36,498 nucleotides of DNA, taken from the NCBI GenBank assembly GCA_964550945.1, contig CAZKBD010000009.1:1-36498 (forward strand), written 5' to 3'. This DNA is from an uncultured Methanosarcinales archaeon. Its GTDB lineage: Archaea; Nanobdellota; Nanobdellia; Woesearchaeales; CAZKBD01. Each line of letters begins with the position of its first letter. Position 1 is the stretch's first letter. The notes beneath the pieces were generated by a model. That model saw only the letters and a list, made by a program, of their open reading frames with translations, ran no database searches and had not been told where the DNA came from. Both the position numbers and the translations under genes were made by a program. Below are positions 7,804 to 36,498 of the stretch, piece after piece.

Positions 7804-7832
7804 AATTTTATTACTTTTTCTATAATAACCAT

Positions 7833-15876: not shown

Positions 15877-18800
15877 TCAAGGTATTGTCAAGGACATATT
15901 TTGATTTACCTTAACCCAATATCCATATCCGGGCTTCATTGTAGTTAAAGTGTTCAAGAATCCAGGCCTTGCAGTGCTATAACTTTCCCATATGCCCTCT
16001 TTCCAGGCAAAGACTAATTCTAGATTACTCATAATATCAGTAAATGCAATTGTTAAATTTTCCTCTTCAAGAGAAGGGTAACCAATAAGATTCCATCCCT
16101 GGGCTAGATCAACTACGGCGCCGTTCATAATAGTTCCATTGATCTCTAGGCTATCGCTATTATCCATCTTTATCCAATATCCAAATTCAGGTTTTAGCTC
16201 TGTTAGTGTATTAAGGAATGCTGGCCTTTCAGGAGTGTAAGATTTCCATTCATGCCCAACATCAGAAGCATCATATTCAAACACAATATTATAATTACCT
16301 TCAATTGAAGATAAAGCAGATGGCAATGAGTTATCTACTAGAACAGCCGGTATTGAGATTAAGTTCCAGCCTGATACTAGGTCAATATTTAAGGCTTGGA
16401 TTGTGTATTCAAGAACCGTTATAACTAAATCCTGGCTATCACTTGATTCACCATCACTCACAGTTATATTCACATGATACTCTCCAGCATCTCCTGATTG
16501 AGTCTGCCATGAAAATACGTTGTCATTCTGCACAAACCTTGAGTTATTTATAGAGTAGCTTAATTCATCTTCATCAATATCACCAGCTATTGCAGTTATC
16601 GATACAGTTTTTGTTTCGTTTACAGTTATATCGGCAATATATTCAAGAACAGGCGCATGGTTTATTAGCAGCCAGCCGCTCTCCTGGGTAAGAGGATAAT
16701 TATCACTCTCATTGCTGTTGTTGATGTAGTATGGTGAATCGCAGATGCCGTCAACATTTAAATCAAAGCAATCTTCAATTTCCTGATCGTAATCGCTCCA
16801 ATAATTGCCTTCCATGCCATTATCCCATGTGTTGTTTGCAGTTAAACCTACTTGGTGAAGATTATTGATGATGTTATTATGATAAACAGTGTTGTTTTTA
16901 GAGCTTGGGAATGTAAGGCCATATTGATTGTTAACTATAAAATTATTTTTGATGGTTGAGTTTACAGAAGCGCCTAAACTAAAACCATATGTATTGTTCC
17001 TTATATCATTGGCATCAAAGACATTGTTGTAGGTAACTCCATAATAAGTTGAAGAATGAGAAAATCCTGTAGAGCCTCCAGATACATTGTTACCTTTAAA
17101 TATGCCATTACTTGAATAATGGTCAAAATAGAATCCTGTTGAGCAATGCTTAATTGTGTTGTTTATGTAGTTGTTATAATAAGAATACCACCAAATACGG
17201 AATCCTTGTGAGCAATCATAGACGCTATTGTTCATAAATAAACTGTAAGTAGTATCATACAAAGAAAACCCGGTATAATAACTGCCCCTTAATATGTTGT
17301 CTATGATTGTGTTATTATAGCTATGCCAACCAGTAAATCCTGTGTTGCTATTCCCTATTAGGGTATTTCCTTTTATTAGATGATTACTTGTACCTGTATC
17401 ATCTACCTTATGTGTGCTTATATCTAATGAGTTGTTCACAAAGGTGTTAGCAATTATTCGTTCATAGTTATTATTCAGAAGGATTCCGGTATTGTAATTC
17501 TCAATTCTACAGTTAGTTATTTCGTTATAAGGGTGATAGACCTTTATAGCTGTTCCTGATTTAGTTCCATAAATTAGGGTATTGTCACAATTAACAACAA
17601 TATCAGTAGCGTCTGTATTCAAACCGTCTGGAAGGTAATATTTTCCTGGGCAAAGTGTAGCATTTTCAGTTATTATCATACCATTGACAGGCACAACACA
17701 ATCGCTAGTATCATCAACACCAACTAAGAACCATTCCTTTGAGCTGAAAAAACCATTAACATCAGTTACAACAACAGTTATCCTATCTGTACCTTGATGA
17801 TTGATTGTATAACTTAATGTTGATGATGTTCCAATTTCACTTTTCACAGGAATGCCTTCAACAAACCATGTTATGTTAAGGTCTAAGCCCCTTGGAGAAA
17901 AGGAATCAATTGAGAATTCCTGAGTAGCACCAACATCTACAAAAGAGATATTCGATGCTGGGGAGTAATCAATTATAATAGGAACGTTTTGTACTAATGT
18001 TTCCTGATATTCAGTTGTTATATCTGTGATGTTCTTTGCATAATTGTAAATCTTGAATTCGTCAACATAACTATCTCCATAACCATAATAATAGTTCCTT
18101 CCAATCCACATATACTTGGTTATATCAGGATAGAATGAACAGAATTGGCTATTGGATCCTGCTGATCCATCAATGTAAGTTCTGCCTGTATAACAATCAG
18201 TGCCTGAAGTGCCCCATGTAAAGGCAACGTAATGCCATTTATACTTTCCTGGTGTGCCGTCCCACATCTGAGTCATGTTTGCTGCACTATTCCTTATCTC
18301 AGTTATTATACCTGTGCTAGTGCCCTCATCTCCAAATATTCCCATGCTGTTTGCATGAAGACCAGATAGCCTTCCAATATCAAAATACCCGCTACTGGTC
18401 TGAGATACTCTTTTCTTAAACCAAAACTCGATTGTTCCATTTGAGCTAGGGAAGTTATCTGCAATTGGATATGAAGCAAAAGAGGAAGAAGTGCCATTGA
18501 ATGCTTTATCTCTTATTCCATAGAAGAAAGTTGCTGTCCCATTAACTGTGCCATTTACTGCACCATTGTTAAGTATGATTGATGACAAATTGTCAAAGCT
18601 TTCATAAAAGAGTAAGCCCTCTTCTGAAAGCACTTCAAAATGGCAGGAGCAGCCTGAACAGAAATCATTGGTTGATGAATTCCCATCATCACAGTCATTA
18701 TTTATTTCACATTCTGCGCTGCAATTGGTTATACTACAAGAATGGGTTAATGCAACAGTTCCTGTTGTGCAGCTATCACTAGCTTCATTACAACCAGAAG

Positions 18801-21800
18801 TGAAACCAGCAAAATAATCCCAAGTTAATGGGTTATTGTCTGGGTTATTTAAGCACGTTGCTATTGGACCTAGAGTATTAACAGAACAATCAACATTAGT
18901 TCCTGCTTGACAACCTAAAACACTATTACAAATCTCTGCACCATTGCACCAAAGGCTATCGTTGCATAAAGAATTAATGGGGTTGTGCTGGCAAGAGCCG
19001 CTTACACAAACATCAGCAGTACACCCAATAGCATCAACACAGCTAGCGTCAGCTCCTGGATTTTCATCAATTCCATTAACGCAATTATCATCTATTCCAT
19101 TGCAAATCTCAGTTGCACCCGGATGTACATTTGGATTGCCATCATTGCAATCTAGTTCTGGATATGTGCAAGCTGCATTTGCTGGATTTCCATAGCCATC
19201 CACATCGTTATCAATACATCTGCAGCTTGTTGTATCATTTGAAGGGTATGGATAGCACAACCAAGGATAAAAATCAACTATCCCTGATTCTGGATCATCA
19301 TAATAATCATAAATCCTGTTGCCTATCTCTTCTTGTACATTAGTTCCCCACCAGTTGTATTCTGCAGACATGCTTTCGTTTCCCTTAAAATTTGACAGAG
19401 CAGTAGCAGTGTTGTTTATGTTGTTGTACTCTATCCTATCACTGGCTGAACCCCCCATATAGAAAAAGAAACCAGTATCAGTAAGAGTAAGGTTATTGTA
19501 GATATACTCATTATAAGAGGAATATTGTACCCAAATGCCAACACCGCTTGTGTTTAAAAGGCGATTATACGCGAAAGTGTTGTTATGAGAGCTTGTTATG
19601 CGAACTCCCCAATCATAGTCTGAAATGTGATTGTTAAGTATTTTATTATCGTACGATTCTTGCAATATAAGACCATAAAATCCATTTGATATAAGATTAC
19701 CAGAAATTGTATTATTCAATGAGTAGGTTATGCTTAATCCAAAGTCATTGCTAAGCAAGCTGTTGTTGAAAACTAAATTATTATCAGATCCATGAACACT
19801 GCCGTCATAATAATATGCTAAGGAAATGCCGAGGTAATTTTCAGACAGGTTATTTTTGAAAATAGTAGTGTAGGAGCTCGCATTCAAAACAATACCTTCA
19901 GAAAAATTTTGTATGTTGCAGTTTTTTATTGTATTATTGAATTTATTATTAGCATATATACCGCGACCAGAACCATCCCCATTCAAAACAGCACTACCAC
20001 AATCCAGCACAACATTATCAGTGCCAATTGTTATTCCATTAAGCAAATTATAAGTCCCTGAACAGAAAGTTGTATGTTGAATAATAACAGCCCCATCTGT
20101 AGCGGGGTGCACACTAGCATTGTTATCATCACAGTCAAGTTCTGGATATGTGCAAGCTGCATTTGCTGGATTTCCATAGCCATCATCGTCATTATCAACG
20201 CAAATTATTGGAACTGTTGGATGATAGTCTACTCCATCTCCGGGTCCACTGATTTCATAATTAGGAAAGCCTGGATTTGATTGATAATCACTCCAGTAAT
20301 TCCCTGTATTGCTGTAGTTCCAGTTATTTTTGTATGTAGTTTCATTTTCATAAGCATTTATGGAGTTATTGATGAAATTATTATTCCAGAAATTGTTATA
20401 TGAACTCGGGGCAACTGATATGCCTCCCAGCCGGGCTCCAAAACCATTTCCTGTGAAATTATTCTTAGTAATATTATTGTTAGAGCTGATATGTATGTAA
20501 ACTCCGTATGAATTATTGTTCATAATATTTCCAGATAAAGTATTACCAGAACCCCCAAAAAAATCAATTCCATAATATTTGTTGTTATTTGCAATATTAT
20601 TTAGCATGGTGTTGTAAGAACCGATAAAAGAGCTTATTCCCCCACCTTCGTTGTTGTTTGCAATATTATTTGAGATTGTATTATTTCTGCAGCCCGAAAA
20701 TAGATGGATTCCATCATTGTTATTGTTTACAGTATTTCCTGACAGAGTATTGTTAGAGGAAACATGCAAATGAATTCCATAAAAATTATCTGAAGAGTTT
20801 ATAGCTGTAAAATACGAGTTCTCTGTTTTTGCAACAAGAACCCCATTATTCTTTAATGTTTTTGAGCCAATAATGGTTATATTTGTTATATTGGAATTGT
20901 CTGCATTGCATAAAATCAGTTCTGAGAGAACCTCGTCTTTTAAATAAACCGTAGAATTAAAGTATTTTAGCGGTCTGCCACCAGAGATATTATTATTCTC
21001 AATCAGATTATTGCAGTCTAAAGCTGAAGATGGATAAACGTTAATGTCCCACGCTGAGTTTTCTTTAACATTGTTGTTCAATACACTATTGTTAGAAGTA
21101 AAAGATAAATAGATTCCACTAAGGCTGTTATTAGTTACAGTATTGCCAGAAATAGTATTGCTAGAACCTGTGCTTAAACTAATTCCATTGCTGCTATTAA
21201 ATACATTATTGCCTGATATATTATTGTTGAAGCTCGATGATAAGTAGATTCCGTAAGCATTATTATTAGCTACAGTATTATTTAATAGATTGATATTGGA
21301 GCTTTGGGATAAGCTAATGCCCTGATAAAAGCTAACTAGATTGCAATTCTTAATAGTAACCCCTGCCCTACTGCTAATGCTTATTCCTGAACCTGATGAA
21401 GAGCTGTTTCCGTTTAAAATAGCATTATTACAATCTAAGACGGTGTTATTTGCTGCAATTGTTAAACCATTTGGTAGTATGTAAGTCCCTGAACAGAAAG
21501 TCGTGTTTTCAAATATGTTCATCCCATTTTGAGGAATGATGCATGATTCAGTATAATTATTGAATGCATTTTTTAAGCCATAATAAGCTTGTCGTGGCTG
21601 CATTATGTCTGGAGAAGTTCCATTATCAACAGTCCTCATAATGCCATACCATTCTTCATTTGAACATCCATCTGGGTGATTTGGAGTAGAATAAGCGCAG
21701 TTTGTTGTATGCACGCAAGGATCATTAGTGCTCCAATCCTTCTGCCATTCATCTGAATAGGCCATGACTGTACCTCCCATTGAATTTGCTGCAATCTCTC

Positions 21801-23307
21801 TCCACATATTTAAGTCCCATTCTGATTGAGCATGTTCATATTCAGCTCCAGCAGTATTATTCAAAGCATCTATGCCATATTCAGAAAGCCATAATGGCTT
21901 TTGAGTCATAACACCATAATCATCAAAAAAGGAGCCAAAAGAATAACCTCTGTAGGCATTTATTCCCCAAGAATCAACATAATTTAAGGAAGCGTCATCT
22001 GCTTTAGCTCCGGCGCTTCCAATATAGCCTAGATCACCATTGACAATTGTAGCAGGATGATACGTATCATTCTCTTCGATATAAGCTACTTTTGCTAACT
22101 CATTTGCCAATGAATACCACTCAGCCATATCTCCTGTATAGAACAGATTATTTTCATTGCCAATAACCCACATAAGCACAGCAGGATGATCCTTAAATTG
22201 ATGAACATAATCCTTAAACTGAGTTTTGTAAGATTCTATTGTTGCTGGATCTCCATAATCTATGCTTGGATTATCATTGCTTGATGGAATATAAAATCCC
22301 ATAGCAACATATATAGGATTAGTTCCATTGTTGTATGCAGCGTTGAGGAAGTTTACGTTTGTTACTTTTCCCCAAGTCCGTATTGTATTGGTATTCATAT
22401 CTCTTAAAAGACTGAAATCTCTATTGTAAACCTCTGGATGAGAAAAGAAATCATAACTATAATCTCCACATATTGGTATTGGCTGATAACCAACTCCCTT
22501 CATTAAAAAGGGTTTGTTGTTGACAAACAAGCCTGAGCTGTTTATTTGTACAGGCCCTGTGCTTTGGTTTTTTGCAGAAGGAACAATTGGAGGAGTATAG
22601 TTGATCATCTCGTTATAGTCCTGTATTATCTGCGCGCTTGATATCATGTAATCGTATATTTTAAGCTCGTCTATGTATGCGTCTGCTCTTTCATACCAAC
22701 CGACATCTCCTACTGTGAAAGATGTATCTGAAGGATTAAATGGTATATTCATGCCTGACCAATCTCCATTTGGCACAATTACTCCATTTCTATATACCCT
22801 CATAATGTCGCTTCCGCCAGTGTTAAACTTGTATGTAATCACTATGTTTGTCCACTCTCCGATTGAAAATGAATTTTCTCTGGATAACGGGCCATGTTGT
22901 AAACTACTATCATCTTTAACTTCAAAATAAACATAATTTGTTGCCAAGTTCCTGAAAATAGCCATGCTTGAAGCAGTGCCAAGTTGTCCAAAATCAAAGT
23001 AACCATTTCCTCCATTACCAGAAGCTCCATTATTAAACGAGACTGGTTTAATCCAAAGAGAAACGCTCCCTTGGCTTTTATTGATATTATTCAAAACAGG
23101 ATAAGTCAATGAGCTGCCAGAGCCAAAGTTTGATGCATTGCCTTTTATACCTTGTCCAAAAGATGTAACAGAGCATGAAATGCAACCATTTGTACTAAGA
23201 GAATTAGCATTGTCAAAGCTCTCGTAAAAGATTAAAGAATCTGCGTTGATTAAGGGCATAACTAATAAAATAAAAAAAATCAAACTTATAATTTGAAATA
23301 ATCTCAC
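15877..23307 (-). CDS. Giant secreted multidomain glycoside hydrolase: LamG-like, clan GH-A TIM barrel (GH2-like), three NosD/CASH beta-helix blocks, MopE-related motifs, second LamG-like, Ig/cadherin-like, tandem GWNL...GYW tail
   Basis: ORF of ~2476 aa. RBS GAGGGGG 6 nt before GTG at 23307 (the track start at 23322 overlaps the RBS). Motifs IDELKIYD, KGVGYQP, NTIRTW, HPAVLMWVIGNENN, KPLWLSEYG, GNYWSDY and many GIxLxxSxNNxIxxN repeats. Confidence 0.88.
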   Translation of the reverse strand: MRLFQIISLIFFILLVMPLINADSLIFYESFDNANSLSTNGCISCSVTSFGQGIKGNASNFGSGSSLTYPVLNNINKSQGSVSLWIKPVSFNNGASGNGGNGYFDFGQLGTASSMAIFRNLATNYVYFEVKDDSSLQHGPLSRENSFSIGEWTNIVITYKFNTGGSDIMRVYRNGVIVPNGDWSGMNIPFNPSDTSFTVGDVGWYERADAYIDELKIYDYMISSAQIIQDYNEMINYTPPIVPSAKNQSTGPVQINSSGLFVNNKPFLMKGVGYQPIPICGDYSYDFFSHPEVYNRDFSLLRDMNTNTIRTWGKVTNVNFLNAAYNNGTNPIYVAMGFYIPSSNDNPSIDYGDPATIESYKTQFKDYVHQFKDHPAVLMWVIGNENNLFYTGDMAEWYSLANELAKVAYIEENDTYHPATIVNGDLGYIGSAGAKADDASLNYVDSWGINAYRGYSFGSFFDDYGVMTQKPLWLSEYGIDALNNTAGAEYEHAQSEWDLNMWREIAANSMGGTVMAYSDEWQKDWSTNDPCVHTTNCAYSTPNHPDGCSNEEWYGIMRTVDNGTSPDIMQPRQAYYGLKNAFNNYTESCIIPQNGMNIFENTTFCSGTYILPNGLTIAANNTVLDCNNAILNGNSSSSGSGISISSRAGVTIKNCNLVSFYQGISLSQSSNINLLNNTVANNNAYGIYLSSSFNNNISGNNVFNSSNGISLSTGSSNTISGNTVTNNSLSGIYLSFTSNNSVLNNNVKENSAWDINVYPSSALDCNNLIENNNISGGRPLKYFNSTVYLKDEVLSELILCNADNSNITNITIIGSKTLKNNGVLVAKTENSYFTAINSSDNFYGIHLHVSSNNTLSGNTVNNNNDGIHLFSGCRNNTISNNIANNNEGGGISSFIGSYNTMLNNIANNNKYYGIDFFGGSGNTLSGNIMNNNSYGVYIHISSNNNITKNNFTGNGFGARLGGISVAPSSYNNFWNNNFINNSINAYENETTYKNNWNYSNTGNYWSDYQSNPGFPNYEISGPGDGVDYHPTVPIICVDNDDDGYGNPANAACTYPELDCDDNNASVHPATDGAVIIQHTTFCSGTYNLLNGITIGTDNVVLDCGSAVLNGDGSGRGIYANNKFNNTIKNCNIQNFSEGIVLNASSYTTIFKNNLSENYLGISLAYYYDGSVHGSDNNLVFNNSLLSNDFGLSITYSLNNTISGNLISNGFYGLILQESYDNKILNNHISDYDWGVRITSSHNNTFAYNRLLNTSGVGIWVQYSSYNEYIYNNLTLTDTGFFFYMGGSASDRIEYNNINNTATALSNFKGNESMSAEYNWWGTNVQEEIGNRIYDYYDDPESGIVDFYPWLCYPYPSNDTTSCRCIDNDVDGYGNPANAACTYPELDCNDGNPNVHPGATEICNGIDDNCVNGIDENPGADASCVDAIGCTADVCVSGSCQHNPINSLCNDSLWCNGAEICNSVLGCQAGTNVDCSVNTLGPIATCLNNPDNNPLTWDYFAGFTSGCNEASDSCTTGTVALTHSCSITNCSAECEINNDCDDGNSSTNDFCSGCSCHFEVLSEEGLLFYESFDNLSSIILNNGAVNGTVNGTATFFYGIRDKAFNGTSSSFASYPIADNFPSSNGTIEFWFKKRVSQTSSGYFDIGRLSGLHANSMGIFGDEGTSTGIITEIRNSAANMTQMWDGTPGKYKWHYVAFTWGTSGTDCYTGRTYIDGSAGSNSQFCSFYPDITKYMWIGRNYYYGYGDSYVDEFKIYNYAKNITDITTEYQETLVQNVPIIIDYSPASNISFVDVGATQEFSIDSFSPRGLDLNITWFVEGIPVKSEIGTSSTLSYTINHQGTDRITVVVTDVNGFFSSKEWFLVGVDDTSDCVVPVNGMIITENATLCPGKYYLPDGLNTDATDIVVNCDNTLIYGTKSGTAIKVYHPYNEITNCRIENYNTGILLNNNYERIIANTFVNNSLDISTHKVDDTGTSNHLIKGNTLIGNSNTGFTGWHSYNNTIIDNILRGSYYTGFSLYDTTYSLFMNNSVYDCSQGFRIWWYSYYNNYINNTIKHCSTGFYFDHYSSNGIFKGNNVSGGSTGFSHSSTYYGVTYNNVFDANDIRNNTYGFSLGASVNSTIKNNFIVNNQYGLTFPSSKNNTVYHNNIINNLHQVGLTANNTWDNGMEGNYWSDYDQEIEDCFDLNVDGICDSPYYINNSNESDNYPLTQESGWLLINHAPVLEYIADITVNETKTVSITAIAGDIDEDELSYSINNSRFVQNDNVFSWQTQSGDAGEYHVNITVSDGESSDSQDLVITVLEYTIQALNIDLVSGWNLISIPAVLVDNSLPSALSSIEGNYNIVFEYDASDVGHEWKSYTPERPAFLNTLTELKPEFGYWIKMDNSDSLEINGTIMNGAVVDLAQGWNLIGYPSLEEENLTIAFTDIMSNLELVFAWKEGIWESYSTARPGFLNTLTTMKPGYGYWVKVNQNMSLTIP
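19154..19200. repeat. 47-bp exact intragenic repeat encoding DGYGNPANAACTYPE (other copy 20138..20184; 35-bp partial copy near 24754..24788)
   Basis: agttctggatatgtgcaagctgcatttgctggatttccatagccatc is present at both positions. Confidence 0.9.
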
Positions 23308-23342
23308 ATTAAACCCCCTCAAAATAGTTTCCCAAAATCCAC

Positions 23343-25187: not shown

Positions 25188-25223
25188 TTAAATCCCCCCT
25201 TAGTTTATGGAATCTCTTTTGAT

Positions 25224-25241
25224 ATTAAATAGTTTTCTATT
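25224..25241 (-). promoter_or_regulatory. 18-bp BRE-TATA element, identical to 15822..15839
   Basis: Minus strand AATAGAAAACTATTTAAT upstream of the RBS of the 614-aa gene. Confidence 0.65.
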
Positions 25242-25255
25242 CAAAATCATAATAA

Positions 25256-28200: not shown

Positions 28201-29860
28201 CTCTGCTAGTCCATGTTATTACAAAATTATCCAACGAATTCAAACCTACATAGGGGTAACCGACAAAATTAGTTCCTTTATCAAAAATGGAGTAATTAAT
28301 AACCAAAAATTCATTTCCGATGCTGCTATTAAACTTAAACCTGTTCGCATAGAGGCCAGCCATACCCACCCAACTAGCCCTACCCCCCTCCCAAACAACA
28401 ATAAAATCACTTTCATTATCTAAAAAAATGTACGGTGAATAACCTATATCAGTTATTTTATTGATTCTAAATTTGTTTCCAATTTCATTTCCCAACAAGT
28501 CATACGCTTGTCCGGATATATCGTTATTCCCTTCCCTCCAAACAATTATAGAGTTTCCAGATTTATCGATTGCTGCAGAGGATAGATCAAAAGTTGTTTC
28601 AAACTCTTTGATACCGCTTTTGTTTGAATTAAATAACCTAGCGTGTTTTTTATAAATAACAATAAATTGGCCAGAGGGATTCATTGAGATAACAGGCCTC
28701 CCAAGCGGCATTCCAAAATAAAAGTCGTACGGGCATTCAATTGAATTTGCAAAAATTTCAAATTCATCCCCTATCCTATTACCATCAAAATCATATCCTT
28801 GCCCATATATGTTACATGAGCCATTACCGACATCACCCAACCATACACTAATGAAGTTTCCATTAGAATCCATCCCGACAGAAGGATGAGCCTGATCCAA
28901 AAAATTATTTGTATTGACTTGAAACTCATCACCTCTTCTGCTGTTATCACCATAAAACCTTTGACCGTAAATTCCAAAACCGCTTCCATCCTGGCCATCG
29001 CTTTGCCAAACCACAACAAACTCTCCATTAGGATCCTTTGCTATAGCAGGGGAACCTTGGTTGTTGGTGGTGTGGGTATTCACTCTAAATTTATTACCTA
29101 TCTTGTCCCCTAAACTGCTATATTTTTGACCATAAACATCAAATCCGCTACTTCCTTCACCTTCCCACACAATTATAAAATTTTTATCATTGTCTATTAC
29201 CATTTGAGGATCTAACTGATTATATTCCTGATCTGAACTCACATCAAATTTGATTGGGTTATTTAAAGGTGATTCACAACCATCTATCAATTCAGAGGAG
29301 CAGTATGACTCACAGACATCGCCAGGGTTGATACATGCATCAAGAGTACAATCATTACCATCAGAGCAGTCACTATCCGAATTGCATGATGGCTCTAGCC
29401 TAAATTTGCTCCCAGGACAACAATATCCTCCACTAACCAATATCTCACCACAAAAACATTGTCTCCCTACAGGTCCCAGGTTGCACTCCGGGGCAGATGA
29501 AGAATAACATGCAGCATAAGCTGTACTGCCCTCTAAACAGACGCCTCTGCTAGCGTTTGTACGGCAATCTACATCTGAAAGACACCGTGGAAATAAACAC
29601 GCACATTCTGCACCCTTTGCTAATTGGCCTTCTATACACCTACAGGAGATGGGTTCAGACCCCGTCACAATCCCTCCTTCTGTCGGCATATTATATCCGG
29701 TTAGTAAGTTTACCCTATTGGTCTTCTCAAAAGAGCCACTAGTATTTTTTTCGTTATTAACTATATTGTCACCTATATTTCTTGAATCTCCAGCTATACA
29801 GACAGATAACAGGATTAGAAGTATTGATATACAATTAGCCAAAAAAATATTTTTATCGAT
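25256..29860 (-). CDS. Large secreted multidomain zinc metalloprotease-like protein: Cys-rich N-terminus, beta-propeller-like repeats, NosD beta-helix, HExxH zincin, CARDB, tandem GWNL...GYW tail
   Basis: ORF from TTG 29842 in the track, open upstream to ATC at 29860, which follows a GGGGGGT RBS (start uncertain). Motifs FQVNT...QxxP...FVVVWQSDGQDGSGFGIYGQRF, VTHEMGHKFDLADQY and IDPGDLISERNETNN. Confidence 0.85.
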   Translation of the reverse strand: MDKNIFLANCISILLILLSVCIAGDSRNIGDNIVNNEKNTSGSFEKTNRVNLLTGYNMPTEGGIVTGSEPISCRCIEGQLAKGAECACLFPRCLSDVDCRTNASRGVCLEGSTAYAACYSSSAPECNLGPVGRQCFCGEILVSGGYCCPGSKFRLEPSCNSDSDCSDGNDCTLDACINPGDVCESYCSSELIDGCESPLNNPIKFDVSSDQEYNQLDPQMVIDNDKNFIIVWEGEGSSGFDVYGQKYSSLGDKIGNKFRVNTHTTNNQGSPAIAKDPNGEFVVVWQSDGQDGSGFGIYGQRFYGDNSRRGDEFQVNTNNFLDQAHPSVGMDSNGNFISVWLGDVGNGSCNIYGQGYDFDGNRIGDEFEIFANSIECPYDFYFGMPLGRPVISMNPSGQFIVIYKKHARLFNSNKSGIKEFETTFDLSSAAIDKSGNSIIVWREGNNDISGQAYDLLGNEIGNKFRINKITDIGYSPYIFLDNESDFIVVWEGGRASWVGMAGLYANRFKFNSSIGNEFLVINYSIFDKGTNFVGYPYVGLNSLDNFVITWTSRENKLFKILGKIYGASIPQSCLDNTPDNQCSSTKPLYCDNGDLINNCNVCGCDPSHFCNADGSCSECVIPEDNMDVTQSTIFCPGDYYLSNGISIGADNIAVNCNGAALIGTGSRSGISIKNRKGLTVKSCIVKYYVNGIEMDNSNYSVLTGNRLENNDQGIFSKDSNKNNIFYNNVSGSKYHGLYLVYSDENTIQDNDVYHNEAGIGLSANSHSNSIIHNNFCPANENIDFQLLTNNQGSNVGSSNKCDWPGMWNDAGREGCAERCTIQEEPSLTILILPFDWEGTFEEYKQEAYRVSHYFLERIPLHMCPEQFKFVIPEWKNYGLFWIDNQCDKYTSSYPLQPHCFDGLSTLGILKGCGDDYKSATGNNYDYIVGITDQDVAQGSLIVLCNYNVGGWASSINPSIIAQTDSVGIVTHEMGHKFDLADQYCDCWPLCGPGPGSPNPFDIRLGCDKSGSCCWSADLTPFCKRGCNGNFDIYGEDTDLDGFLDTGQRTTMSNLILSGEAGHYDSNEYAYFGLKPQLQCRTTQQKTFQTKVLERTSAENVSVIEISLVLYNNGSVSLENEGVTFGEPLTNDSQEGTYSFKISDNNNDTVYERNFEIYFVILSDPPEVTNSTWFYDRVGYKDSMKSVQLYHNNSLIFSKEINFCNNNSICEPGFWENFYGCPGDCISYAHDNICNNAEDNGCDPDCLSGIDPDCTDLYFSFVNLTQGSIREGETAIIEVVIENSGHNNLSNIFVEFDVDDDLYDIRNASITNNSRLNLEFDYNGTIGEHELSWIIDPGDLISERNETNNIENFNITLNKVFDIPLNTGWNLISTPLSLVNGTLPAPLSSIEGNYNVVFAYDANDVGNEWKSYNPARPAFLNNLTALSPNLGYWIDMTSDDVLELQGIVTSNTTFNLKQGWNLIGYPTLTETNAEELFAPLGDGLGTIFQYKAIDDGDEWKSYSPDRPSFLNTLNVVQPGYGYWVKVDEDTIPIIP
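25650..25762. repeat. 113-bp exact repeat shared with 23737..23849 and 30302..30414
   Basis: Encodes GWNLISTPLSLVNGTLPAPLSSIEGNYNVVFAYDAND in three genes, with identical codons. Confidence 0.95.
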
Positions 29861-29893
29861 TTTTACCCCCCAGAAATAGAAAGCCTTCTTGTT

Positions 29894-29907
29894 TATTTAA
29901 ACCTTTC
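29894..29907 (-). promoter_or_regulatory. BRE-TATA for the metalloprotease-like gene
   Basis: Minus strand GAAAGGTTTAAATA immediately after the upstream stop codon. Near-identical to GAAAGATTTAAATA at 71-84. Confidence 0.7.
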
Positions 29908-32900
29908 TCAGCTAATAGTCAAACTTCTATCATCATAAACCTTAACCCAATATCCATAACCCGGCTTCATTGTAGTTAGCGTATTCAGGAATGCTGGCCT
30001 TGCAGGATTATAAGACTTCCATTCATTGCCAACATCATCAGATTCATACATAAATACAACTTCTAAATCATCAGCTATACCATTAAACAGTATCTCAGCA
30101 TCTGTTTCATTGCGGGAAGGGTATCCAATCAAATTCCATCCTTGTTTTAGATTAAATGTTGTGTTTGATGTAACTATCCCTTGCAGCTCTAAACTATCAT
30201 CTGAGGTCATATCTATCCAATAGCCCAATTCAGGAGTAATCTCTGTTAAAGTATTCAAGAATCCAGGCCTTGCAGGATTAAAGCTCTTCCATTCATTTCC
30301 AACATCATTTGCATCATACGCAAAAACAACATTATAATTGCCTTCAATTGAAGACAACGGAGCAGGTAAAGTACCGTTAACTAAACTTAATGGTGTTGAG
30401 ATTAGGTTCCAGCCTTGAGTTAGATCAATGTTGAACTGAAAACACGCTTCATCAACTGTTCCGTCACAATCATTGTCTAATCCATCGCAAGATGCCTCTG
30501 GGTTTTCATAGTCAGATCCATAATCTGGATTAGTACAACCAAGCCACTCACCATTTGCACACGTTTCGATACTCCCTTCGCAAACCCCTTCCTGTAATGC
30601 GCAAAGCTGGGTTTCAAAATCATCGCAAACTATGCTATTATTGCTAACAGCAGAAACCTGCACATTATCTTGGACTCTCGTATTATTAGCATAATCAATG
30701 GGCATAACAGTATAATAATACATTTGGCCATCAGTTAAACCTCCACCTAAATCAGTGTATGTCGTATTTGTTTGCGACTGTATTTTATTTTTTTCACAAA
30801 TACCCTGCAGAGAAGCGGAGCAAGGCAAATCATTCCAATTTGCTCCAAATGGATATATCTCTGCACAGTCTTCATCACCCCAATTATTAGGCTCTCCATT
30901 GACCCAATTAGTATAATTAGATTCTCCATAAGCCCAAACAAAATTACCCTCTTGAACAATATCATTAAGACCAATCCATCTATCTTCTCCAGAATAAGTT
31001 GAAGCTAACCAGCTGTTTTCAGCCTCGTCATTTATTGTTACCAAATACCACCCTAAAGAAGTGCAGGAATCATTAGCTTCTTGCCAACTTCTACTGATTT
31101 CCGTTAATCTATAACAGCTACCAGAATATGAATCCCAACCATTAAGGCATACTTCTTCTTGTGTAATCCTCTGGCCAATCTGCCCGCTAATCTCTGACCT
31201 ATAAATCTCATAATAATACACGCCGCTAGCGGCATCATAAGGCTCTTCCCATCCTAATAATATATTGCCATGTTTCTTTGAAGTTGCGTTAATATTAGTA
31301 ACCGGCTCCGGAGCTGTTGTATCAACATTAACTCTATAATGCCCAATATTCCCTAAATTCCCCAATGTATCAACAGAAACAATATGGAAATACCATGTTC
31401 CATCATCAATATCATTAAATGAGGTAAAATTGCTTGTTGTGTAAGTTCCAGTCAAATTTGTTGGAACTGTATTCTCAACTTTATCAAAACTATAATAATG
31501 ACCCGCTATGCTGTCAGGATGCAGAACACCCCATTCTAAAGAAGGATCATTATTTTGATACCATTGTGTTTGGTTTGAGTGTGATGTTGAACTGACATTT
31601 GGTGCAGACGTGTCAATGTTTATCTGGTAATTAGAGGGGCTTGTTCCGACTTCACCCAATTCATTCTCAGAGACTATGTGGAAATACCACGTTCCATCAG
31701 CAATGTTTGTGAAGGTCACATTAGTGCTGGTTGTATAACTGCCTGTGGATGCAGTTGGAATAGTTGATTCGTTTTGGTCTAGGAGATAATAGTGAGCCAT
31801 TATTCCTTGATTGATTTCCCAATTAAGGCGTATATCTCTATTAGAATAATATTTTTCCTCAATAGGATGGGAAGGAGATATTACTAAAGGGACTAAGATA
31901 GCCGTTACTATAGTTCCATCTTGTCCATAGCCCCCCATACTGTTCCCACTTCCCCCATTAATTTTGATCTTTGAAGGATCTATATTAGAAATATAGCTAC
32001 AAAATATTTTTATTCTGCCTCCACCTCCACCTCCACCACCTCCCTGATCTTGTTGATCATAAAATCCCCCATAAATCCCATTACCTCCAATTGCACTAAT
32101 AAACCCCAATTGAATACAATCTACAGAGTGTATAAATATTCCTCCTCCACTCCCTCCTCCACTCCCCCCACTCTCCCCGTCCCCATCCCGACCATTCACT
32201 GAAATATTTCCATTAACTATCGTCGTATTTGTCACTAGTAATCTTATTTTTGCACCACCATTCCCACCTACATTACTAAACCCAGCACCACCTCCTGAAC
32301 CCATATCTAAAATAGTGGTGCTTTGATCGCCGTACTCNNNNNNNNNNCTAGGAGAACAAAAATACCCACCATCTCCCCCATTCCCACCGTATCCCCCTCC
32401 ACCCCCTCCATCACATCTCCAACCGGTCTCAGGACCCCAACAACTACAGCCTCCTCCTCTTCCACCCCCGGGACCCTCACTAAACTCCCCATAGGGGGAG
32501 GTTCCACCCCTATACCCTGCTCCATCACCATTTATCTGGCTTATTGGATCAATAAAAACATTATCAGCGTAAATCTCTAACTCTCCAGTTCCTTCTGTGC
32601 CATTGTAAGGTGTTACAAATAAAATCCCTCCATTTGTTATGCTAACATTTTTGTAATGATACACCCCATGCATTGTAACATTTACTCCATTAATTATCAG
32701 ATTGTCACCTGCAACATCAATCTCCCTGCTCTGGATATTGTTGGAATAATTTGCCTCCATAAAATCATTAAATGGCGAGATAATCACGATTACAGTATAA
32801 TCCCCATCCAAATCTGGAGCCCACACAACTGAAACCGTTTCTGTTCCTAAACCAGAAATATCAACAGTTGCGTTTCCTATTAGAATGTCCTCATATTGTC

Positions 32901-35900
32901 CATTGTAATAAAATTCAATTGCAGCATTATATGCACTTACATTCAGCAAATTATTAATAACCGCTTCTATTGTGACATTATCACCAACATAAGGGGTATC
33001 GTCAGAAAAGGTTATATTGTCAACAACTAAATCAGGATATTCCTCAACCCAAAACGAACTAACTTTTTCCCTTTCAAAATTGGTTCCATTTGCAGTGACT
33101 GTTAAATCATATTCTCCATTGATATTAGTTTCAGTGTAAACATTTGTATAGTTGCCGTCGTTTGCTATTAAATCATTGTGCGTTCCGTCGTCATACAAAT
33201 AAATTAGATTCTCGCTGGTATCAGGCTTTATTATGTTCACTACAATATTAGCGTTAGTTATTGGATTTGTATCATTTTTTAATTCAGCTGTAATAGTTAA
33301 TTGTTGATTTGAGTGTAAAACATAATCACTTAGTGAAACATCCATAGACATGCTTGATTCAACAAATGTATAGATTAAATATTCAACATTTTCAGTGACA
33401 TTGTAGCCAAAAACATTTAATGTCCATTCTCCCTGCAATGGATTGCCTATTTCATACGCTTGGGTATAGTCGCCATCTTCATAAGTTATATTAAAAAAGG
33501 CTGCGTTGTTTGGATCGATTAGTGTACCATTTGAATCAATTAAGGTAAAATTTAGGGTACCATTAAAATTCCCTAAAATAAACTCTACTGCATCGATATT
33601 TTGCAAATAGACTGTATGGTTTTTCCCTTGGCTTTGGCTAAGATTTCCAGATATTGAAGCCAGTTGCTGAGGAATTGGTTCAATGCCAAAAGATTTTTGT
33701 TGGAGTGGCGCAGTTTGGGACTCAAAATTATTTTCCAGTATATATCTAACCTCATTGTAAGGTTGTATATCATTGTGAAGTCCTTCATGATTGCTTCCAA
33801 AATTTGCTTGCTCAATTAAATCCAGTTTGACGCTATTTACTGCCACAAAACCATCATCCTCACCTGGCAATACCCAGCTGCCTAGTCCTCCATTGGTCCC
33901 AGCAATGGTGTACTGGTATATCCCGCTTGTTGTAATATCTTCACAGTTTTCTCTATGAGGATTATCGCAGTTAAGAGAATTAAGAAAATCATTGCCTGGT
34001 TTCATCTGAAAGAAAGCTTTCCCAGCTACATTTGTGCCAGTGACTCCTTTATAAGCCTCAGCAAAAAGATAAAAATAATTCGTTAATTCGGAACCATGAT
34101 TGGGTGTACCAAGCATTACAAGCTTTCTTACATCATCTTGATACAGGTCACTTCTCCTTGTATACCCTCTTGACACTAAGCCACCCATTGAATGAGCAAC
34201 TATATCAACATATTTGGCATTGTATTGGTTTTTTACATATCTTATTCTATTTTTTAATACCTCAGAATACCTTGAGATGTTGCCTCGTGCAGGTACATTA
34301 CTAACTTCTAGATCCATCACTTCAACAGTAAAACCATCATTTTCAAGCCTTTGCTTCATCACAGACCACGTCTCACTCATTGGATCAACTACATTGTAAC
34401 CATGCACCAGAATAACAGGAACAATGCAGCTATAATGGCAGCTTCCTCCGCAATCAACACCAGTCTCACCTAAGTTATTATCTTGATAATTATTATTGCA
34501 GCAATCCTGGTTAGCGCAGCTCCCCCCACAATCAATTCCTAGTTCATCACTGTCTTTAATGCCGTTTTCACATTGGCCCAGGCATAATCCCCCTCCACAA
34601 CCATATTGGCAATTTCCAACTAATCCTTCGTTAAAATATGAGTTATAGAAGCAGGAATTTCCAGAGCAACCCAAGTTATAACATGTTCTGTTATGGTAAA
34701 CGCTATTGCCTATGCAATAATTAGTGCCCCAACCATCACAATAACTATTGCCACATTCTTGGACTTTCTGCTCATCAGTATATGGGTTGTTAAAACAAGA
34801 GCTGCCAGAGCATCCTTTGTCATAGCATGTCCTTGAGTGATAAACATCATTATCTCTGCAAGAATTACCACCCCAGCCATCGCAATAATCGTCTCCACAA
34901 TCAGATCTTAATTGAGCTGAATCTGAATTGGAGCAGTATGAAGAAGGAGTTCCAGGATTATTGCATATATAAGTTCGGTAATTCTGATAAAGGTCATTAT
35001 TCGAGCACCAAGGTGAATCAACCCAGCCGTCTGTTCCGCAATCTGAATTTGAATCGCATGCTATGACCTCACATCCAAAATCATAATTGCATGTCGCATC
35101 ATTATCAGCGCATTTCTCTGTTGTAGTGCAGTCATCAGCTAATGCCCAAGCATCCCACTGCAAAGCTCCGTCACAGCCAGATGAAGTTCCAGAGCAATAT
35201 TTATCCTGATGCTGCACGCCAACATCATTACTGCAAGCTGTTCCCCAAGGGCATCCATAGTCTGTTGTCACATCTTCCTGGCATTTGTAAGTTGTTGGCC
35301 TGTAATTGCATCCATCGCAGCAAGTTCCTGATGTGCATACACAAGCACATACAGCATCATAATTGCAGCTTGAGTCATCATTCGCGCATTTCTCTGTTGT
35401 TGTGCAGTCATCATAAACAACAGGAGTATCCCACTGCAAAGCTCCATCACAACCAGTTGAAGAGCCAGAGCAATATTTATCTTGGTGCCTTACATAAACA
35501 TCCTGGCCACAGTTAGTTCCATCTGCACATTCATAATCTGTTGTAACATCTTCCTGGCATTTGTAGGTTGTTGACCTGTAATTGCAGCCATCGCAGCATG
35601 TTCCTGATGTGCAAACGCAAGGTGTTCCTCCAGAAACCCATTGCATATCCCATATAAAATCCACAGGAGACGTAAAGCTTTCAACTATCGAACCACTGGT
35701 TGTTACTTTATGAATACTGTCCCCAGGCGTGCTTATCCAAAAATATTGTCCATCCCATGCAAGACCAACTGGATATGAGAAAGCAAAGCCACCAACAACA
35801 GAGCCGCTAGTTGTAAGCTTATAAATGTAATTATCATCCATATCTGCAAGCCATAAGTAATCATCTGCATAAGTTAAACCTAAAGAAAAATCGCCGCCTG

Positions 35901-36498
35901 GTGTAGGAAAGTAACTAACAACTTCTCCAGTTGTTGTTAACTTGTAGACTCTATTCAGGGAAGAGTTAGTACTAGACCATGTAGCCAACCACAAATATGT
36001 GCCATCCCAAACTAAACCAGTTGGAGCATACGGTCCGAAGAAATGGCTTATCTCTTGTCCTGAAGTAGTCATCTGATAGATTCTCCTAAGAACTGAAGCC
36101 TCCCACAAATATGTGCCATCCCACGTTATTCCTACAGGGCTTTCAGGGCCAGAAAATTGAGAAACTAAAGTCCCATTTGTATAAATTTTTGTGGTGTAAC
36201 CTGGAGCTGAACTACCACTTGCCAACCAAAGGTAGTCAGATGAACTAGTAGTAGTAATATTGCTTAATCTATAGGTTATTTTTGGGCTTTTGATTATCTT
36301 ATCTTTTATCAACTGAACTTTTGTATTAAACTCCTTCAAAGCTTCTGAATCATTAAATGTTTCTTCAGGAGAATCACTCTCACTGGATTTGCTCGTATAA
36401 TACGCTTGGCTAATTATTGGACTAACCTGCCCAAACCAGTCAAATTGATTATTTTGACTATCAATCACAGTAAATTTTATTGCATTATTAGAATCACC
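29908..36498 (-). CDS. 5'-partial giant secreted multidomain lipase/esterase-adhesin: WDGxYLW propeller, Cys-rich repeats, alpha/beta hydrolase, LYDDGxHxD domain, CARDB, Gly-rich domain, Ig/FN3 repeats with inserted C-type lectin, MopE-related motif, tandem GWNL...GYW tail
   Basis: Frame stays open to the window edge (GGT GAT TCT AAT... before the GTG at 36468). Motifs PVILVHG, VDIVAHSMGGLVSR, LGTPNHGS, DDGFV, NHEGL, WIGLND, GEPNN and WNDLPC. Spans a 10-N gap. Confidence 0.85.
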   Translation of the reverse strand, partial: GDSNNAIKFTVIDSQNNQFDWFGQVSPIISQAYYTSKSSESDSPEETFNDSEALKEFNTKVQLIKDKIIKSPKITYRLSNITTTSSSDYLWLASGSSAPGYTTKIYTNGTLVSQFSGPESPVGITWDGTYLWEASVLRRIYQMTTSGQEISHFFGPYAPTGLVWDGTYLWLATWSSTNSSLNRVYKLTTTGEVVSYFPTPGGDFSLGLTYADDYLWLADMDDNYIYKLTTSGSVVGGFAFSYPVGLAWDGQYFWISTPGDSIHKVTTSGSIVESFTSPVDFIWDMQWVSGGTPCVCTSGTCCDGCNYRSTTYKCQEDVTTDYECADGTNCGQDVYVRHQDKYCSGSSTGCDGALQWDTPVVYDDCTTTEKCANDDSSCNYDAVCACVCTSGTCCDGCNYRPTTYKCQEDVTTDYGCPWGTACSNDVGVQHQDKYCSGTSSGCDGALQWDAWALADDCTTTEKCADNDATCNYDFGCEVIACDSNSDCGTDGWVDSPWCSNNDLYQNYRTYICNNPGTPSSYCSNSDSAQLRSDCGDDYCDGWGGNSCRDNDVYHSRTCYDKGCSGSSCFNNPYTDEQKVQECGNSYCDGWGTNYCIGNSVYHNRTCYNLGCSGNSCFYNSYFNEGLVGNCQYGCGGGLCLGQCENGIKDSDELGIDCGGSCANQDCCNNNYQDNNLGETGVDCGGSCHYSCIVPVILVHGYNVVDPMSETWSVMKQRLENDGFTVEVMDLEVSNVPARGNISRYSEVLKNRIRYVKNQYNAKYVDIVAHSMGGLVSRGYTRRSDLYQDDVRKLVMLGTPNHGSELTNYFYLFAEAYKGVTGTNVAGKAFFQMKPGNDFLNSLNCDNPHRENCEDITTSGIYQYTIAGTNGGLGSWVLPGEDDGFVAVNSVKLDLIEQANFGSNHEGLHNDIQPYNEVRYILENNFESQTAPLQQKSFGIEPIPQQLASISGNLSQSQGKNHTVYLQNIDAVEFILGNFNGTLNFTLIDSNGTLIDPNNAAFFNITYEDGDYTQAYEIGNPLQGEWTLNVFGYNVTENVEYLIYTFVESSMSMDVSLSDYVLHSNQQLTITAELKNDTNPITNANIVVNIIKPDTSENLIYLYDDGTHNDLIANDGNYTNVYTETNINGEYDLTVTANGTNFEREKVSSFWVEEYPDLVVDNITFSDDTPYVGDNVTIEAVINNLLNVSAYNAAIEFYYNGQYEDILIGNATVDISGLGTETVSVVWAPDLDGDYTVIVIISPFNDFMEANYSNNIQSREIDVAGDNLIINGVNVTMHGVYHYKNVSITNGGILFVTPYNGTEGTGELEIYADNVFIDPISQINGDGAGYRGGTSPYGEFSEGPGGGRGGGCSCWGPETGWRCDGGGGGGYGGNGGDGGYFCSPXXXXEYGDQSTTILDMGSGGGAGFSNVGGNGGAKIRLLVTNTTIVNGNISVNGRDGDGESGGSGGGSGGGIFIHSVDCIQLGFISAIGGNGIYGGFYDQQDQGGGGGGGGGRIKIFCSYISNIDPSKIKINGGSGNSMGGYGQDGTIVTAILVPLVISPSHPIEEKYYSNRDIRLNWEINQGIMAHYYLLDQNESTIPTASTGSYTTSTNVTFTNIADGTWYFHIVSENELGEVGTSPSNYQINIDTSAPNVSSTSHSNQTQWYQNNDPSLEWGVLHPDSIAGHYYSFDKVENTVPTNLTGTYTTSNFTSFNDIDDGTWYFHIVSVDTLGNLGNIGHYRVNVDTTAPEPVTNINATSKKHGNILLGWEEPYDAASGVYYYEIYRSEISGQIGQRITQEEVCLNGWDSYSGSCYRLTEISRSWQEANDSCTSLGWYLVTINDEAENSWLASTYSGEDRWIGLNDIVQEGNFVWAYGESNYTNWVNGEPNNWGDEDCAEIYPFGANWNDLPCSASLQGICEKNKIQSQTNTTYTDLGGGLTDGQMYYYTVMPIDYANNTRVQDNVQVSAVSNNSIVCDDFETQLCALQEGVCEGSIETCANGEWLGCTNPDYGSDYENPEASCDGLDNDCDGTVDEACFQFNIDLTQGWNLISTPLSLVNGTLPAPLSSIEGNYNVVFAYDANDVGNEWKSFNPARPGFLNTLTEITPELGYWIDMTSDDSLELQGIVTSNTTFNLKQGWNLIGYPSRNETDAEILFNGIADDLEVVFMYESDDVGNEWKSYNPARPAFLNTLTTMKPGYGYWVKVYDDRSLTIS
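30217..30416. repeat. 200-bp exact repeat shared with 23652..23851
   Basis: Direct comparison; see the other copy. Confidence 0.95.
32338..32347. other. Assembly/scaffold gap (10 N) within the Gly-rich coding segment
   Basis: Run of n characters flanked by poly-C-rich sequence. Confidence 1.

Follow-up and report, generated by a model that had tools for sequence, protein, structure and literature searches.

A GWNL tail shared by giant enzyme-bearing proteins of a DPANN archaeon, and FWG as its candidate docking partner

Neighbouring genes of an uncultured DPANN archaeon encode giant proteins that bear a glycosidase, a metzincin-like and a lipase-like domain and end in the same GWNL tail. We conclude that these three enzymes are probably displayed at the cell surface by a docking system that resembles cohesin-dockerin in its logic and is unrelated to it. 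The candidate partner of the tail is a prealbumin-like domain of about 95 aa, FWG, which is new here; the tail is likely the plug and FWG the socket. The question addressed is how DPANN archaea with small genomes keep hold of large surface enzymes and adhesins. A membrane anchor is missing from most of these giant proteins, and a named partner of about 95 residues turns a vague idea of tethering into a binding question between two proteins. The window, the whole stretch of 36,498 nucleotides that we analysed, contains the following features.

200..3139, plus strand: 979-aa S-layer-like protein whose C-terminal end is one diverged GWNL-like unit (2867-3106, weak)
3184..4122, plus strand: 312-aa protein with a diverged FWG (3256-3567; itself one row of the FWG model), a Gly/Pro linker and a C-terminal transmembrane helix; predicted membrane-anchored socket
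4441..7803, plus strand: 1120-aa S-layer-like protein with the same diverged tail as the 979-aa protein
11040..13568, minus strand: 842-aa protein with FWG (13215-13505), a long Cys-rich stalk and a C-terminal beta domain; second predicted stalked socket
13654..15795, minus strand: 713-aa protein, directly downstream of P0001, with FWG (15439-15729), a Cys-rich stalk and a hydrophobic C-terminus; predicted stalked socket
15877..23322, minus strand: P0001, 2481 aa, with a LamG-like domain, GH-A barrel, three beta-helix blocks, Cys-rich repeats, a second LamG-like domain, Ig and GWNL tail
15880..16395, minus strand: GWNL tail of P0001 (chain 1 in the complex prediction)
21553..22551, minus strand: clan GH-A (beta/alpha)8 barrel of P0001, both catalytic Glu intact (Pfam and PDB profile)
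23343..25187, minus strand: P0002, 614 aa, with an N-terminal FWG, Cys-rich stalk and GWNL tail, without an enzyme; predicted extender/adaptor
23346..23873, minus strand: GWNL tail of P0002
24813..25118, minus strand: FWG domain of P0002 (predicted socket)
25256..29842, minus strand: P0003, 1528 aa, with a Cys-rich N-terminus, propeller-like repeats, beta-helix, metzincin-like domain, CARDB and GWNL tail
25259..25786, minus strand: GWNL tail of P0003
26618..27406, minus strand: metzincin-like domain of P0003, with HExxHxxDxxD and Met-turn-like RTTMSN
29908..36498, minus strand: P0004, 2196 aa, 5'-open, with a propeller, Cys-rich stalk, lipase-like alpha/beta hydrolase, CARDB, Gly-rich region, C-type lectin and GWNL tail
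29911..30438, minus strand: GWNL tail of P0004 (predicted plug)
30790..31131, minus strand: C-type lectin domain of P0004, with EPN and WND motifs (E=6e-16)
33724..34431, minus strand: alpha/beta hydrolase (PGAP1/lipase-like) of P0004, with Ser770, Asp881/882 and His904 at the triad positions

The first-pass annotation had described three co-oriented giant genes with a GH-A barrel, an HExxH zincin and an AHSMGG hydrolase, and these were confirmed in place on P0001, P0003 and P0004, all on the minus strand and with their catalytic motifs intact. Their reported setting among lectin, beta-helix and propeller domains was borne out by the C-type lectin match and by Pfam matches to beta-helices, CARDB and a Vgb-like propeller. 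As for the tail that it had assigned to the three giants, the resemblance held (the other tails are 59-78% identical to that of P0002), while the number of adjacent tailed genes rose to four with the enzyme-free P0002. FWG is present on P0002 and on the two genes that follow the tailed cluster, which encode 713 and 842 aa. TATA-like boxes stand 5' of P0003, P0002 and the 713-aa gene, so a single operon is doubtful. DNA identity among the modules of the cluster is 66-85%, and the cluster grew by duplication and module shuffling. P0004 contains a run of 10 N bases (32338-32347) and is truncated by the contig end; its database copy, P0125 (2221 aa), extends the N-terminus by 24 residues that look like a signal peptide.

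The GWNL module consists of two units of about 88 aa, and the structure model of the P0002 tail (pLDDT 98.1) is made mainly of beta strands in such units. The tail of P0002 had no match in Pfam or NCBIfam; the family, which comprises 11,375 clusters at 50% identity, has no model in either, and a fold search with the tail model gave no clear match (best Z 4.5). GWNL cargo is very diverse, including enzymes, Rhs proteins and adhesins. The FWG model (pLDDT 95.4) has 7 strands in 99 aa, and the top rows of its fold search were prealbumin-like domains, with best Z of 7.0-7.7.

Genomic linkage between the tail and FWG is strong. The first held-out set had 40 FWG loci, one from each of 40 genomes that belong to the same order and played no part in model building. 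A GWNL unit on the same strand lay no more than 1.5 kb away in 32 of them, or in 34 when the diverged-tail model was used. Another surface domain, LTD, had a tail nearby in 1 of 30 loci, and reversed ORFs gave 0 of 2070; LTD is a single control domain, and the Fisher p for 32/40 against 1/30 (3e-11) overstates the difference, since many of the held-out loci are orthologues of one conserved locus and not independent. A second held-out set comprised 79 metagenome loci (GC 0.38-0.66) selected by the tail alone: 36 contained FWG, which was the next gene downstream in 32, compared with 0 of 3993 in the reversed control. After merging at 70% identity, FWG was found in 27 of 49 evaluable clusters.

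Architecture points the same way. FWG is fused to the tail in 17 of 245 tail proteins, versus none of 115 GH homologues; it occurs in tandem, five-fold in locus L276 and two-fold at both L223 and L247; and L138 and L142 each encode a protein with C-terminal FWG and, in the following gene, one that starts with GWNL. Many FWG proteins have a C-terminal transmembrane helix, including a 180-aa gene on contig C67. No clear transmembrane helix was found in the 713-aa and 842-aa proteins, and a region of the former that resembles PACE-CTERM proteins scored below the cut-off. Among long ORFs picked by hand, 7 of 18 GWNL-only proteins and 0 of 14 FWG-only proteins carried a hydrolase Pfam.

Complex prediction lends weak support to binding of FWG by GWNL. 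The pair scored 0.57 (runs 0.29, 0.63 and 0.57) against 0.02 for the best control. Of 157 solved pairs 116 reach the score mark, as do 2 of 215 mismatches; only 18 of these solved pairs and both mismatches do so at 0.60 or below. At least 92% of contacts agreed among runs, and partner pLDDT was at least 87.

The docking model is thus supported by the held-out linkage, the fusions, the tandem FWG, the L138 and L142 junctions, the confident folds and the complex score. Counting against it, FWG was absent nearby in 32 of 68 evaluable tail loci and had no match in 5 of 13 tail-positive relative genomes, one of them rated 100% complete; two FWG matches in the archaeon's own genome, on contig C38, have no adjoining tail; and one prediction run reached only 0.29. 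The absence of FWG from nearly half of the evaluable tail loci and from those genomes would be expected if the tail, like a CBM or SLH domain, bound a surface glycan or the S-layer by itself and FWG were a co-inherited cassette that does not bind GWNL. The conserved surface-type aromatics (W, Y) of the tail, and its N-terminal or internal position in 34 of 245 proteins (C-terminal in 211), also fit such a binder. We nevertheless consider it unlikely, as it does not account for FWG lying strictly next downstream in several architectures, for the fusions and the five-fold array, for the junctions between C-terminal FWG and N-terminal GWNL, or for a complex score above controls.

Under the docking model, the giant proteins would be exported via N-terminal signal peptides, and the GWNL plug would then dock into FWG sockets on neighbouring stalk or membrane-anchored proteins. 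FWG proteins with a C-terminal membrane helix (3184-4122 and the C67 gene) would hold plugs at the surface, as would the stalked 713-aa and 842-aa proteins, whose anchoring is presumed. P0002, which pairs an N-terminal socket with a C-terminal plug, would lengthen chains. Once displayed, the enzymes would cleave beta-glucan-like polysaccharide, proteins and esters of the matrix around the cell or of cells nearby.

The enzyme assignments rest on conserved motifs and profile matches. The P0001 barrel matched Pfam Glyco_hydro_2_C (E=7e-11) and has the sequence features of clan GH-A: barrel homology, an Asn-Glu acid/base after strand 4 (GNENN, 22147-22161; Glu in 45 of 47 aligned rows, the preceding Asn in all 47) and a Glu nucleophile on strand 7 (LSEYG, 21874-21888; 47 of 47). 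PDB profile matches were 9fz9 (E=4e-23), which we take to be GH157, 9oro (5e-23), 6pal (5e-17), presumably BuGH158, and the GH72 structure 8pe2 (2e-16), with GH2 beta-glucuronidases and galactosidases nearly equal (4e-18 to 1e-14). The top single-sequence match was 9oro, given as GH158(Pro) in its source (PMC13195107); it covers only residues 65-214, and by profile it is tied with 9fz9 and close to GH2 and GH72. Like these GH-A families, GH158 included, the barrel is a TIM barrel with two catalytic Glu, yet it sits in its own widespread group of 115 relatives (26-53% identity), and a beta-helix follows it where GH158 has an Ig-like domain C-terminal to the barrel. Its closest relatives appear to include families acting on beta-1,3-glucan rather than wall hydrolases. 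The two LamG-like domains of P0001 had no Pfam match of their own; they matched relatives, most of which have a precomputed LamG match.

In P0003, HEMGH lies at exactly 26936-26950 within HEMGHKFDLAD (26918-26950), which fits the metzincin motif HExxHxxGxx(H/D) with Asp in place of the usual Gly; two homologues retain Gly. The Met-turn-like RTTMSN (26702-26719) is kept as RTxMSN in all three sequences, and the zinc motif and the RTTMSN-type motif are both retained in two homologues from genome G095. Among named MEROPS/Pfam families (M6, M7, M64) there was no accepted match: Pfam gave none, the NCBIfam M6 domain was below threshold (E=0.005, 16.7 bits against a cut-off of 110.8), and snapalysin in the PDB matched at only E=0.23. 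The P0004 hydrolase matched Pfam PGAP1 (E=2e-9) and Burkholderia-type lipases (E=1e-6), and it has a nucleophile elbow (G/A)xSxGG (AHSMGG, 34180-34197), an oxyanion HG, and Asp (33844-33858) and His (33778-33792) motifs in triad order. The catalytic Ser is missing from two of five tailed lipase homologues, and some tailed lipase-like domains may be inactive.

The first-pass annotation had proposed a coordinated toolkit against glycan, protein and ester-lipid, and had named hydrolase enrichment on tailed proteins genome-wide as a check. The domain calls hold; the enrichment was not seen, as hydrolases occurred on 4 of 7 tailed proteins versus 13 of 45 large, extracellular-looking proteins without a tail (p=0.20), or on 4 of 12 versus 13 of 45 with weak tails counted in (p=0.74), and the tail therefore fails as the mark of an enzyme toolkit. 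Among the best 120 database proteins with the tail, 21 carry a hydrolase Pfam, and the tail is found on 1 of 115 GH homologues. What the three proteins have in common is likely their route to the surface.

That they serve together to breach a host cell envelope is a separate claim about purpose, compatible with docking, to which we give little credence. The three intact catalytic motifs amid lectin and adhesin domains would suit it, as would the peptidoglycan-hydrolase domain (GH73) encoded in the same genome. Against it, the tail is not enriched on hydrolases and the GH73 protein is tail-free. The nearest relatives of the P0001 barrel include beta-1,3-glucan enzymes, and to our knowledge beta-1,3-glucans are not usual wall polymers of archaea or bacteria. 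The three-gene set was not found in relatives, of 150 other genomes queried with the zincin one has it (G095, where it is tail-free), and separate TATA-like boxes precede several genes. In favour of breaching, papers on nanohaloarchaeal SPEARE proteins (PMC10266531) and Omnitrophota archaeovorins (10.1101/2023.11.21.568195) propose roles in host or prey contact for these very large secreted multidomain proteins of small-celled microbes. As described there, those proteins range from some 9,000 to over 30,000 aa and have a membrane anchor and ATPase or SecA-like domains, whereas the giants of the window have 1,500-2,500 aa, no membrane anchor and a terminal GWNL tail. Secreted glycosidases and peptidases encoded by DPANN MAGs have been interpreted as serving polymer scavenging (PMC8091004), with neither a shared tail nor a display mechanism described in the part of that source available to us.

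It is very improbable that the tail directs secretion or sorting in the way of the T9SS C-terminal domain or of PGF-CTERM/archaeosortase signals: its mostly C-terminal position on very diverse cargo would agree, but it matches no Pfam or NCBIfam sorting signal (PF18962 and PGF-CTERM included), is non-terminal in the 34 proteins noted above, lies upstream of true T9SS CTDs (PF18962) within the same proteins, comes with a C-terminal transmembrane helix in 0 of 245 proteins, and can also make up nearly a whole protein, preceded by an N-terminal hydrophobic helix.

Cohesin-dockerin pairs serve in clostridial cellulosomes and their anchoring scaffoldins; the dockerin is a duplicated Ca-binding loop-helix of about 22 aa, and the cohesin a nine-stranded jelly-roll of about 140 aa. 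The predicted logic of the GWNL-FWG pair is alike, with enzymes bearing a duplicated C-terminal module and a partner that occurs singly on membrane-anchored proteins, in tandem or on plug-fused adaptors. The components differ: the tails, with their mainly beta units, had no Dockerin_1 match, the FWG model is a seven-stranded prealbumin-like sandwich, and cohesin was found neither by Pfam in any of 66 FWG members (E<=0.01) nor in a PDB profile search with FWG. We put at about even the wider proposition that GWNL and FWG are a third, unrelated plug-and-socket, spread among DPANN archaea and many bacteria yet to be cultured, with which cells assemble interchangeable parts on their surface in the manner of a cellulosome. 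Scaffolds, either anchored in the membrane or with several sockets, would then receive S-layer proteins, hydrolases, Rhs proteins and adhesins, and double-ended adaptors would lengthen the chains. The window would code for one assembly of this sort: three heads with enzymes, an extender and, on stalks, a pair of sockets. Such an assembly tag, independent of cohesin-dockerin, would explain surface display in many uncultured archaea and bacteria, and FWG arrays would identify scaffold proteins.

The SlaA/SlaB S-layer of Sulfolobales has two components, a large secreted protein and a smaller membrane-anchored partner. One domain of PDB 8qox chain B ties with other fold matches of FWG (Z 7.0, rmsd 3.7, 86 aligned); the fold is a common one, the Z is middling and the sequences do not match. 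The GWNL tail, unlike that system, also serves enzymes, Rhs proteins and adhesins. The window likewise has a large secreted S-layer-like protein (200-3139) followed by a smaller membrane-anchored one (3184-4122), a two-gene order seen again in held-out loci L096-L098 and L109. The last ~1 kb of the second S-layer-like gene (4441-7803) is 96.6% identical to that of the first.

The first-pass annotation had described glycosidase, protease and lipase domains on three neighbouring giant proteins with a common tail, and read them as an enzyme toolkit. The observation was confirmed, and the interpretation was supported in part: the domains held up, while an enrichment of hydrolases among tailed proteins did not. 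The window is the entire contig C9 of a 1.97 Mb genome (177 contigs, 92.5% complete), and the cluster in question comprises six genes, here in order of transcription:

29908-36498, minus strand: P0004, alpha/beta hydrolase giant, open at its 5' end, first
25256-29842, minus strand: P0003, zincin giant, second
23343-25187, minus strand: P0002, enzyme-free tailed gene, third
15877-23322, minus strand: P0001, GH-A giant, fourth
13654-15795, minus strand: 713-aa gene, fifth
11040-13568, minus strand: 842-aa gene, sixth

P0001 carries a clan GH-A barrel at residues 258-590 (Pfam GH2_C, E=7e-11), as predicted. An alignment of the query with 46 of the 115 homologues has Glu at the acid/base position in 45 of 47 rows and the nucleophile Glu in all 47. 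Profile matches to solved structures included 9fz9 (4e-23), which we take to be a GH157 enzyme, GH2 enzymes (from 4e-18), 6pal (5e-17), presumably BuGH158, and GH72 transglucosylases (2e-16). A further match was to the GH158(Pro) structure 9oro (5e-23), an enzyme described in the accessible part of its report as a retaining beta-1,3-glucanase (PMC13195107). Beta-glucan is the likelier guess for the substrate. The zincin proposed for P0003 has HEMGHKFDLAD and RTTMSN motifs and is metzincin-like; two homologues in genome G095, both without the tail, have HELGHxFGLxD and the Met motif. No named family scored above the cut-off for this zincin, a protein search matched only relatives of the neighbouring domain, as judged by coverage, and a genome search found the zincin in 1 of 150 other genomes. 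Residues 690-925 of P0004 form the expected lipase-like alpha/beta hydrolase, whose Ser, Asp and His are all retained; among five tailed homologues, two no longer have the Ser. In its database copy P0004 is longer by 24 residues at the N-terminus, which look like a signal peptide.

The shared tail, which we call GWNL, is present on all three giants, and also on P0002, making four tailed genes rather than three. It consists of two units of ~88 aa, each starting GWNL(I/V), and is modelled with a pLDDT of 98.1; Pfam and NCBIfam gave no match. Comparison with known folds produced no clear candidate (best Z 4.5, by VIA), and a PDB profile search returned designed kelch proteins only, on short stretches. 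At E≤0.001, 11,375 cluster representatives contain a match to the tail. Among the 245 top matches, two units occur in 229, the position is C-terminal in 211, and none combines the tail with a C-terminal transmembrane (TM) helix in one protein. Cargoes include S8, C1, M14 and M23 peptidases, GH10, NodB and lipases, as well as Rhs proteins, beta-helices and T9SS substrates, and by our count a hydrolase Pfam domain is on 21 of the best 120 tail-bearing database proteins. Elsewhere in the same genome GWNL is found on a GH10 protein (C114), a LamG fragment (C172) and a 236-aa protein on C67 that is a hydrophobic helix plus tail and little else, with weak tails on five or six further proteins. A 3'-open ORF at C7:30621-40505 overlaps a 5'-open ORF at C29:3-7754 (loci L050 and L006), and so the two would form one ~5,860-aa Ig-repeat giant ending in a diverged GWNL-like tail.

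The tail does not mark hydrolases significantly. As controls we picked 46 large ORFs (≥750 aa) that looked extracellular, judging by composition and eye, and reduced them to 45 by removing the C7 ORF for its apparent continuation into the tailed C29 ORF; hydrolases were 4 of 7 tailed against 13 of 45 untailed proteins (p=0.20), with three controls scored by an HExxH-type motif only. Counting weak tails gave 4 of 12 against the same 45 (p=0.74), and scoring by Pfam only gave 3 of 7 against 10 of 45 (p=0.35). Other secreted hydrolases are plentiful in this genome (two GH9-like, a GH17, a GH10, five S8 peptidases and a second lipase-like protein, on C11, C6, C114, C94, C93, C50, C109 and C100). 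A second shared C-terminal tail family (...GNL.ENGNP) occurs on other large secreted proteins, encoded on C79, C84, C95 and the cut end of the C114 ORF; the C84 protein also has an HExxH motif.

P0002 starts with a ~95-aa domain, FWG, with the consensus P.P..F(Y/W)G.V.I.G..A..G. The domain also starts the 713-aa and 842-aa genes, and a diverged copy starts a membrane-anchored 312-aa gene (3184-4122). Searching 66 members against Pfam gave nothing meaningful (three single matches, E 0.005-0.009), and atlas searches with GWNL and FWG returned unnamed clusters only. Seven strands make up the FWG model (pLDDT 95.4), and its likeness to prealbumin-like sandwiches is of middling strength (Z 7.0-7.7). 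Fusions of FWG to the tail account for 17 of 245 tail proteins versus 0 of 115 GH homologues. The FWG domain occurs with C-terminal TM helices, in tandem arrays of two or five copies (L223, L247, L276), in FWG-stalk-GWNL adaptors and, at L138 and L142, at the C-terminus of a gene followed by one starting with GWNL; these are architectures expected of a socket. Among 34 hand-picked long ORFs, a hydrolase Pfam domain was present on 7 of 18 with GWNL only versus 0 of 14 with FWG only. One 564-aa protein (L276:3658-5349), encoded directly after a GWNL-tailed gene, is five tandem FWG domains, a candidate scaffoldin analogue. The C67 locus (L002:1936-5650) pairs a ~230-aa hydrophobic-helix and GWNL-only gene with one or two FWG genes following, an arrangement conserved in many families of the order (orthologues L042, L044, L045, L116-L136).

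Because FWG was first seen in loci chosen by the tail, its association with the tail was circular, and we therefore ran held-out tests. Of 151 genomes in the order, 51 have a match to the FWG model, a tally that includes the genome of the window and the unpublished G131; no other result draws on G131. Taking one FWG locus from each of 40 genomes outside model building, we looked no further than 1.5 kb for a same-strand GWNL unit and found one at 32 (34 when a diverged-tail model was used). The figure for a control surface domain, LTD, was 1 of 30 loci, and for reversed ORFs 0 of 2070. The counts are not independent, as many of the FWG loci are orthologues of one locus. A smaller prior sample had an upstream S-layer-like gene with a weakly matching, diverged tail at 4 of 8 new FWG loci from other genomes or contigs. 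Conversely, 79 metagenome loci picked by tail alone, via an alignment of 15 database tails, contained FWG in 36, or 36 of the 68 with room to look: in the next gene downstream (32), the previous gene (2), fused (1) or further off (1). Merging near-identical tails left FWG in 27 of 49 clusters. A contig scan of named genomes outside the order returned only three short, chance-level cyanobacterial matches, and a plasmid search returned no match.

We reasoned that GWNL would dock into FWG on stalk or membrane proteins, and we hold this to be fairly probable. Co-folding of the P0001 tail and the FWG domain encoded by the next gene yielded a median score of 0.57 (runs 0.29, 0.63 and 0.57) versus 0.02 for the best of three controls, with contact agreement between runs of at least 92% and partner pLDDT of at least 87. 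Calibration had 116 of 157 solved pairs and 2 of 215 mismatches attaining the mark; only 18 of those solved pairs, and both mismatches, did so with scores of 0.60 or less. For our own alignments these counts are approximate. The prediction weakly favours the pairing. Against docking, however, FWG is missing from the surroundings of 32 of the 68 evaluable tail loci, no FWG match was found in 5 of 13 relatives that have the tail, and two FWG matches on contig C38 have no adjoining tail. The predicted working resembles that of cohesin-dockerin, whereas neither GWNL nor FWG belongs to those families by sequence. Giant proteins of nanohaloarchaea (PMC10266531) and Omnitrophota (10.1101/2023.11.21.568195), as presented in the portions available, differ from this system, and the part of PMC11606122 consulted holds nothing on such proteins. 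Among the papers listed by our literature search, with subscription journals outside its coverage, none was seen to describe GWNL, FWG or the pair.

Building on the observed domains, motifs, shared tail and gene linkage, we propose that the tailed proteins would be exported, that GWNL would bind FWG, and that TM-bearing or stalked FWG proteins would provide anchoring, with P0002 extending chains; the enzymes could then hydrolyse beta-glucan-like polysaccharide, protein and esters at the surface. The targets may be either a host envelope or environmental polymers; the nearest GH families of the P0001 barrel, and the GH73 protein of this genome, which lacks the tail, would sooner suggest scavenging or matrix remodelling. 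Secreted DPANN hydrolases have been read in the same way, in the accessible part of PMC8091004. Rhs/YD-repeat proteins with GWNL, often near the N-terminus (L027, L030, L275, L283 and eight database proteins), may be displayed by the same predicted dock.

All six cluster genes have modules in common at 66-85% DNA identity, and the cluster therefore expanded through duplication and shuffling. A BRE/TATA-like motif, found in 252 of 873 upstream stretches versus 18 of 873 coding stretches, lies upstream of P0003, P0002 and the 713-aa gene, making a single long operon doubtful; none precedes P0001 or the 842-aa gene, and P0002 and P0001, 20 bp apart, may be co-transcribed. Homologue labels and a PACE-CTERM-protein match below cut-off suggest a Woesearchaeota-like placement; no relative of the same family was among the genomes drawn. 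Just downstream of the cluster, 10470-10931 encodes a 153-aa protein whose start resembles a class III signal peptide (pilin-like, by eye). Between Memo-like and DUF11 genes lies an AT-rich non-coding element of ~230 bp (8741-8995), MITE- or dispersed-repeat-like, with relatives spread over 13 further contigs (64-95% piecewise identity). The first 54 bases (2-55) recur unchanged at the ends of six other contigs, a sign that a repeat probably broke the assembly here. Finally, the 3' kilobases of two otherwise different S-layer-like genes (2142-3156 and 6806-7818) are 96.6% identical, which suggests recent duplication or conversion and could permit S-layer variation on a shared anchoring end.
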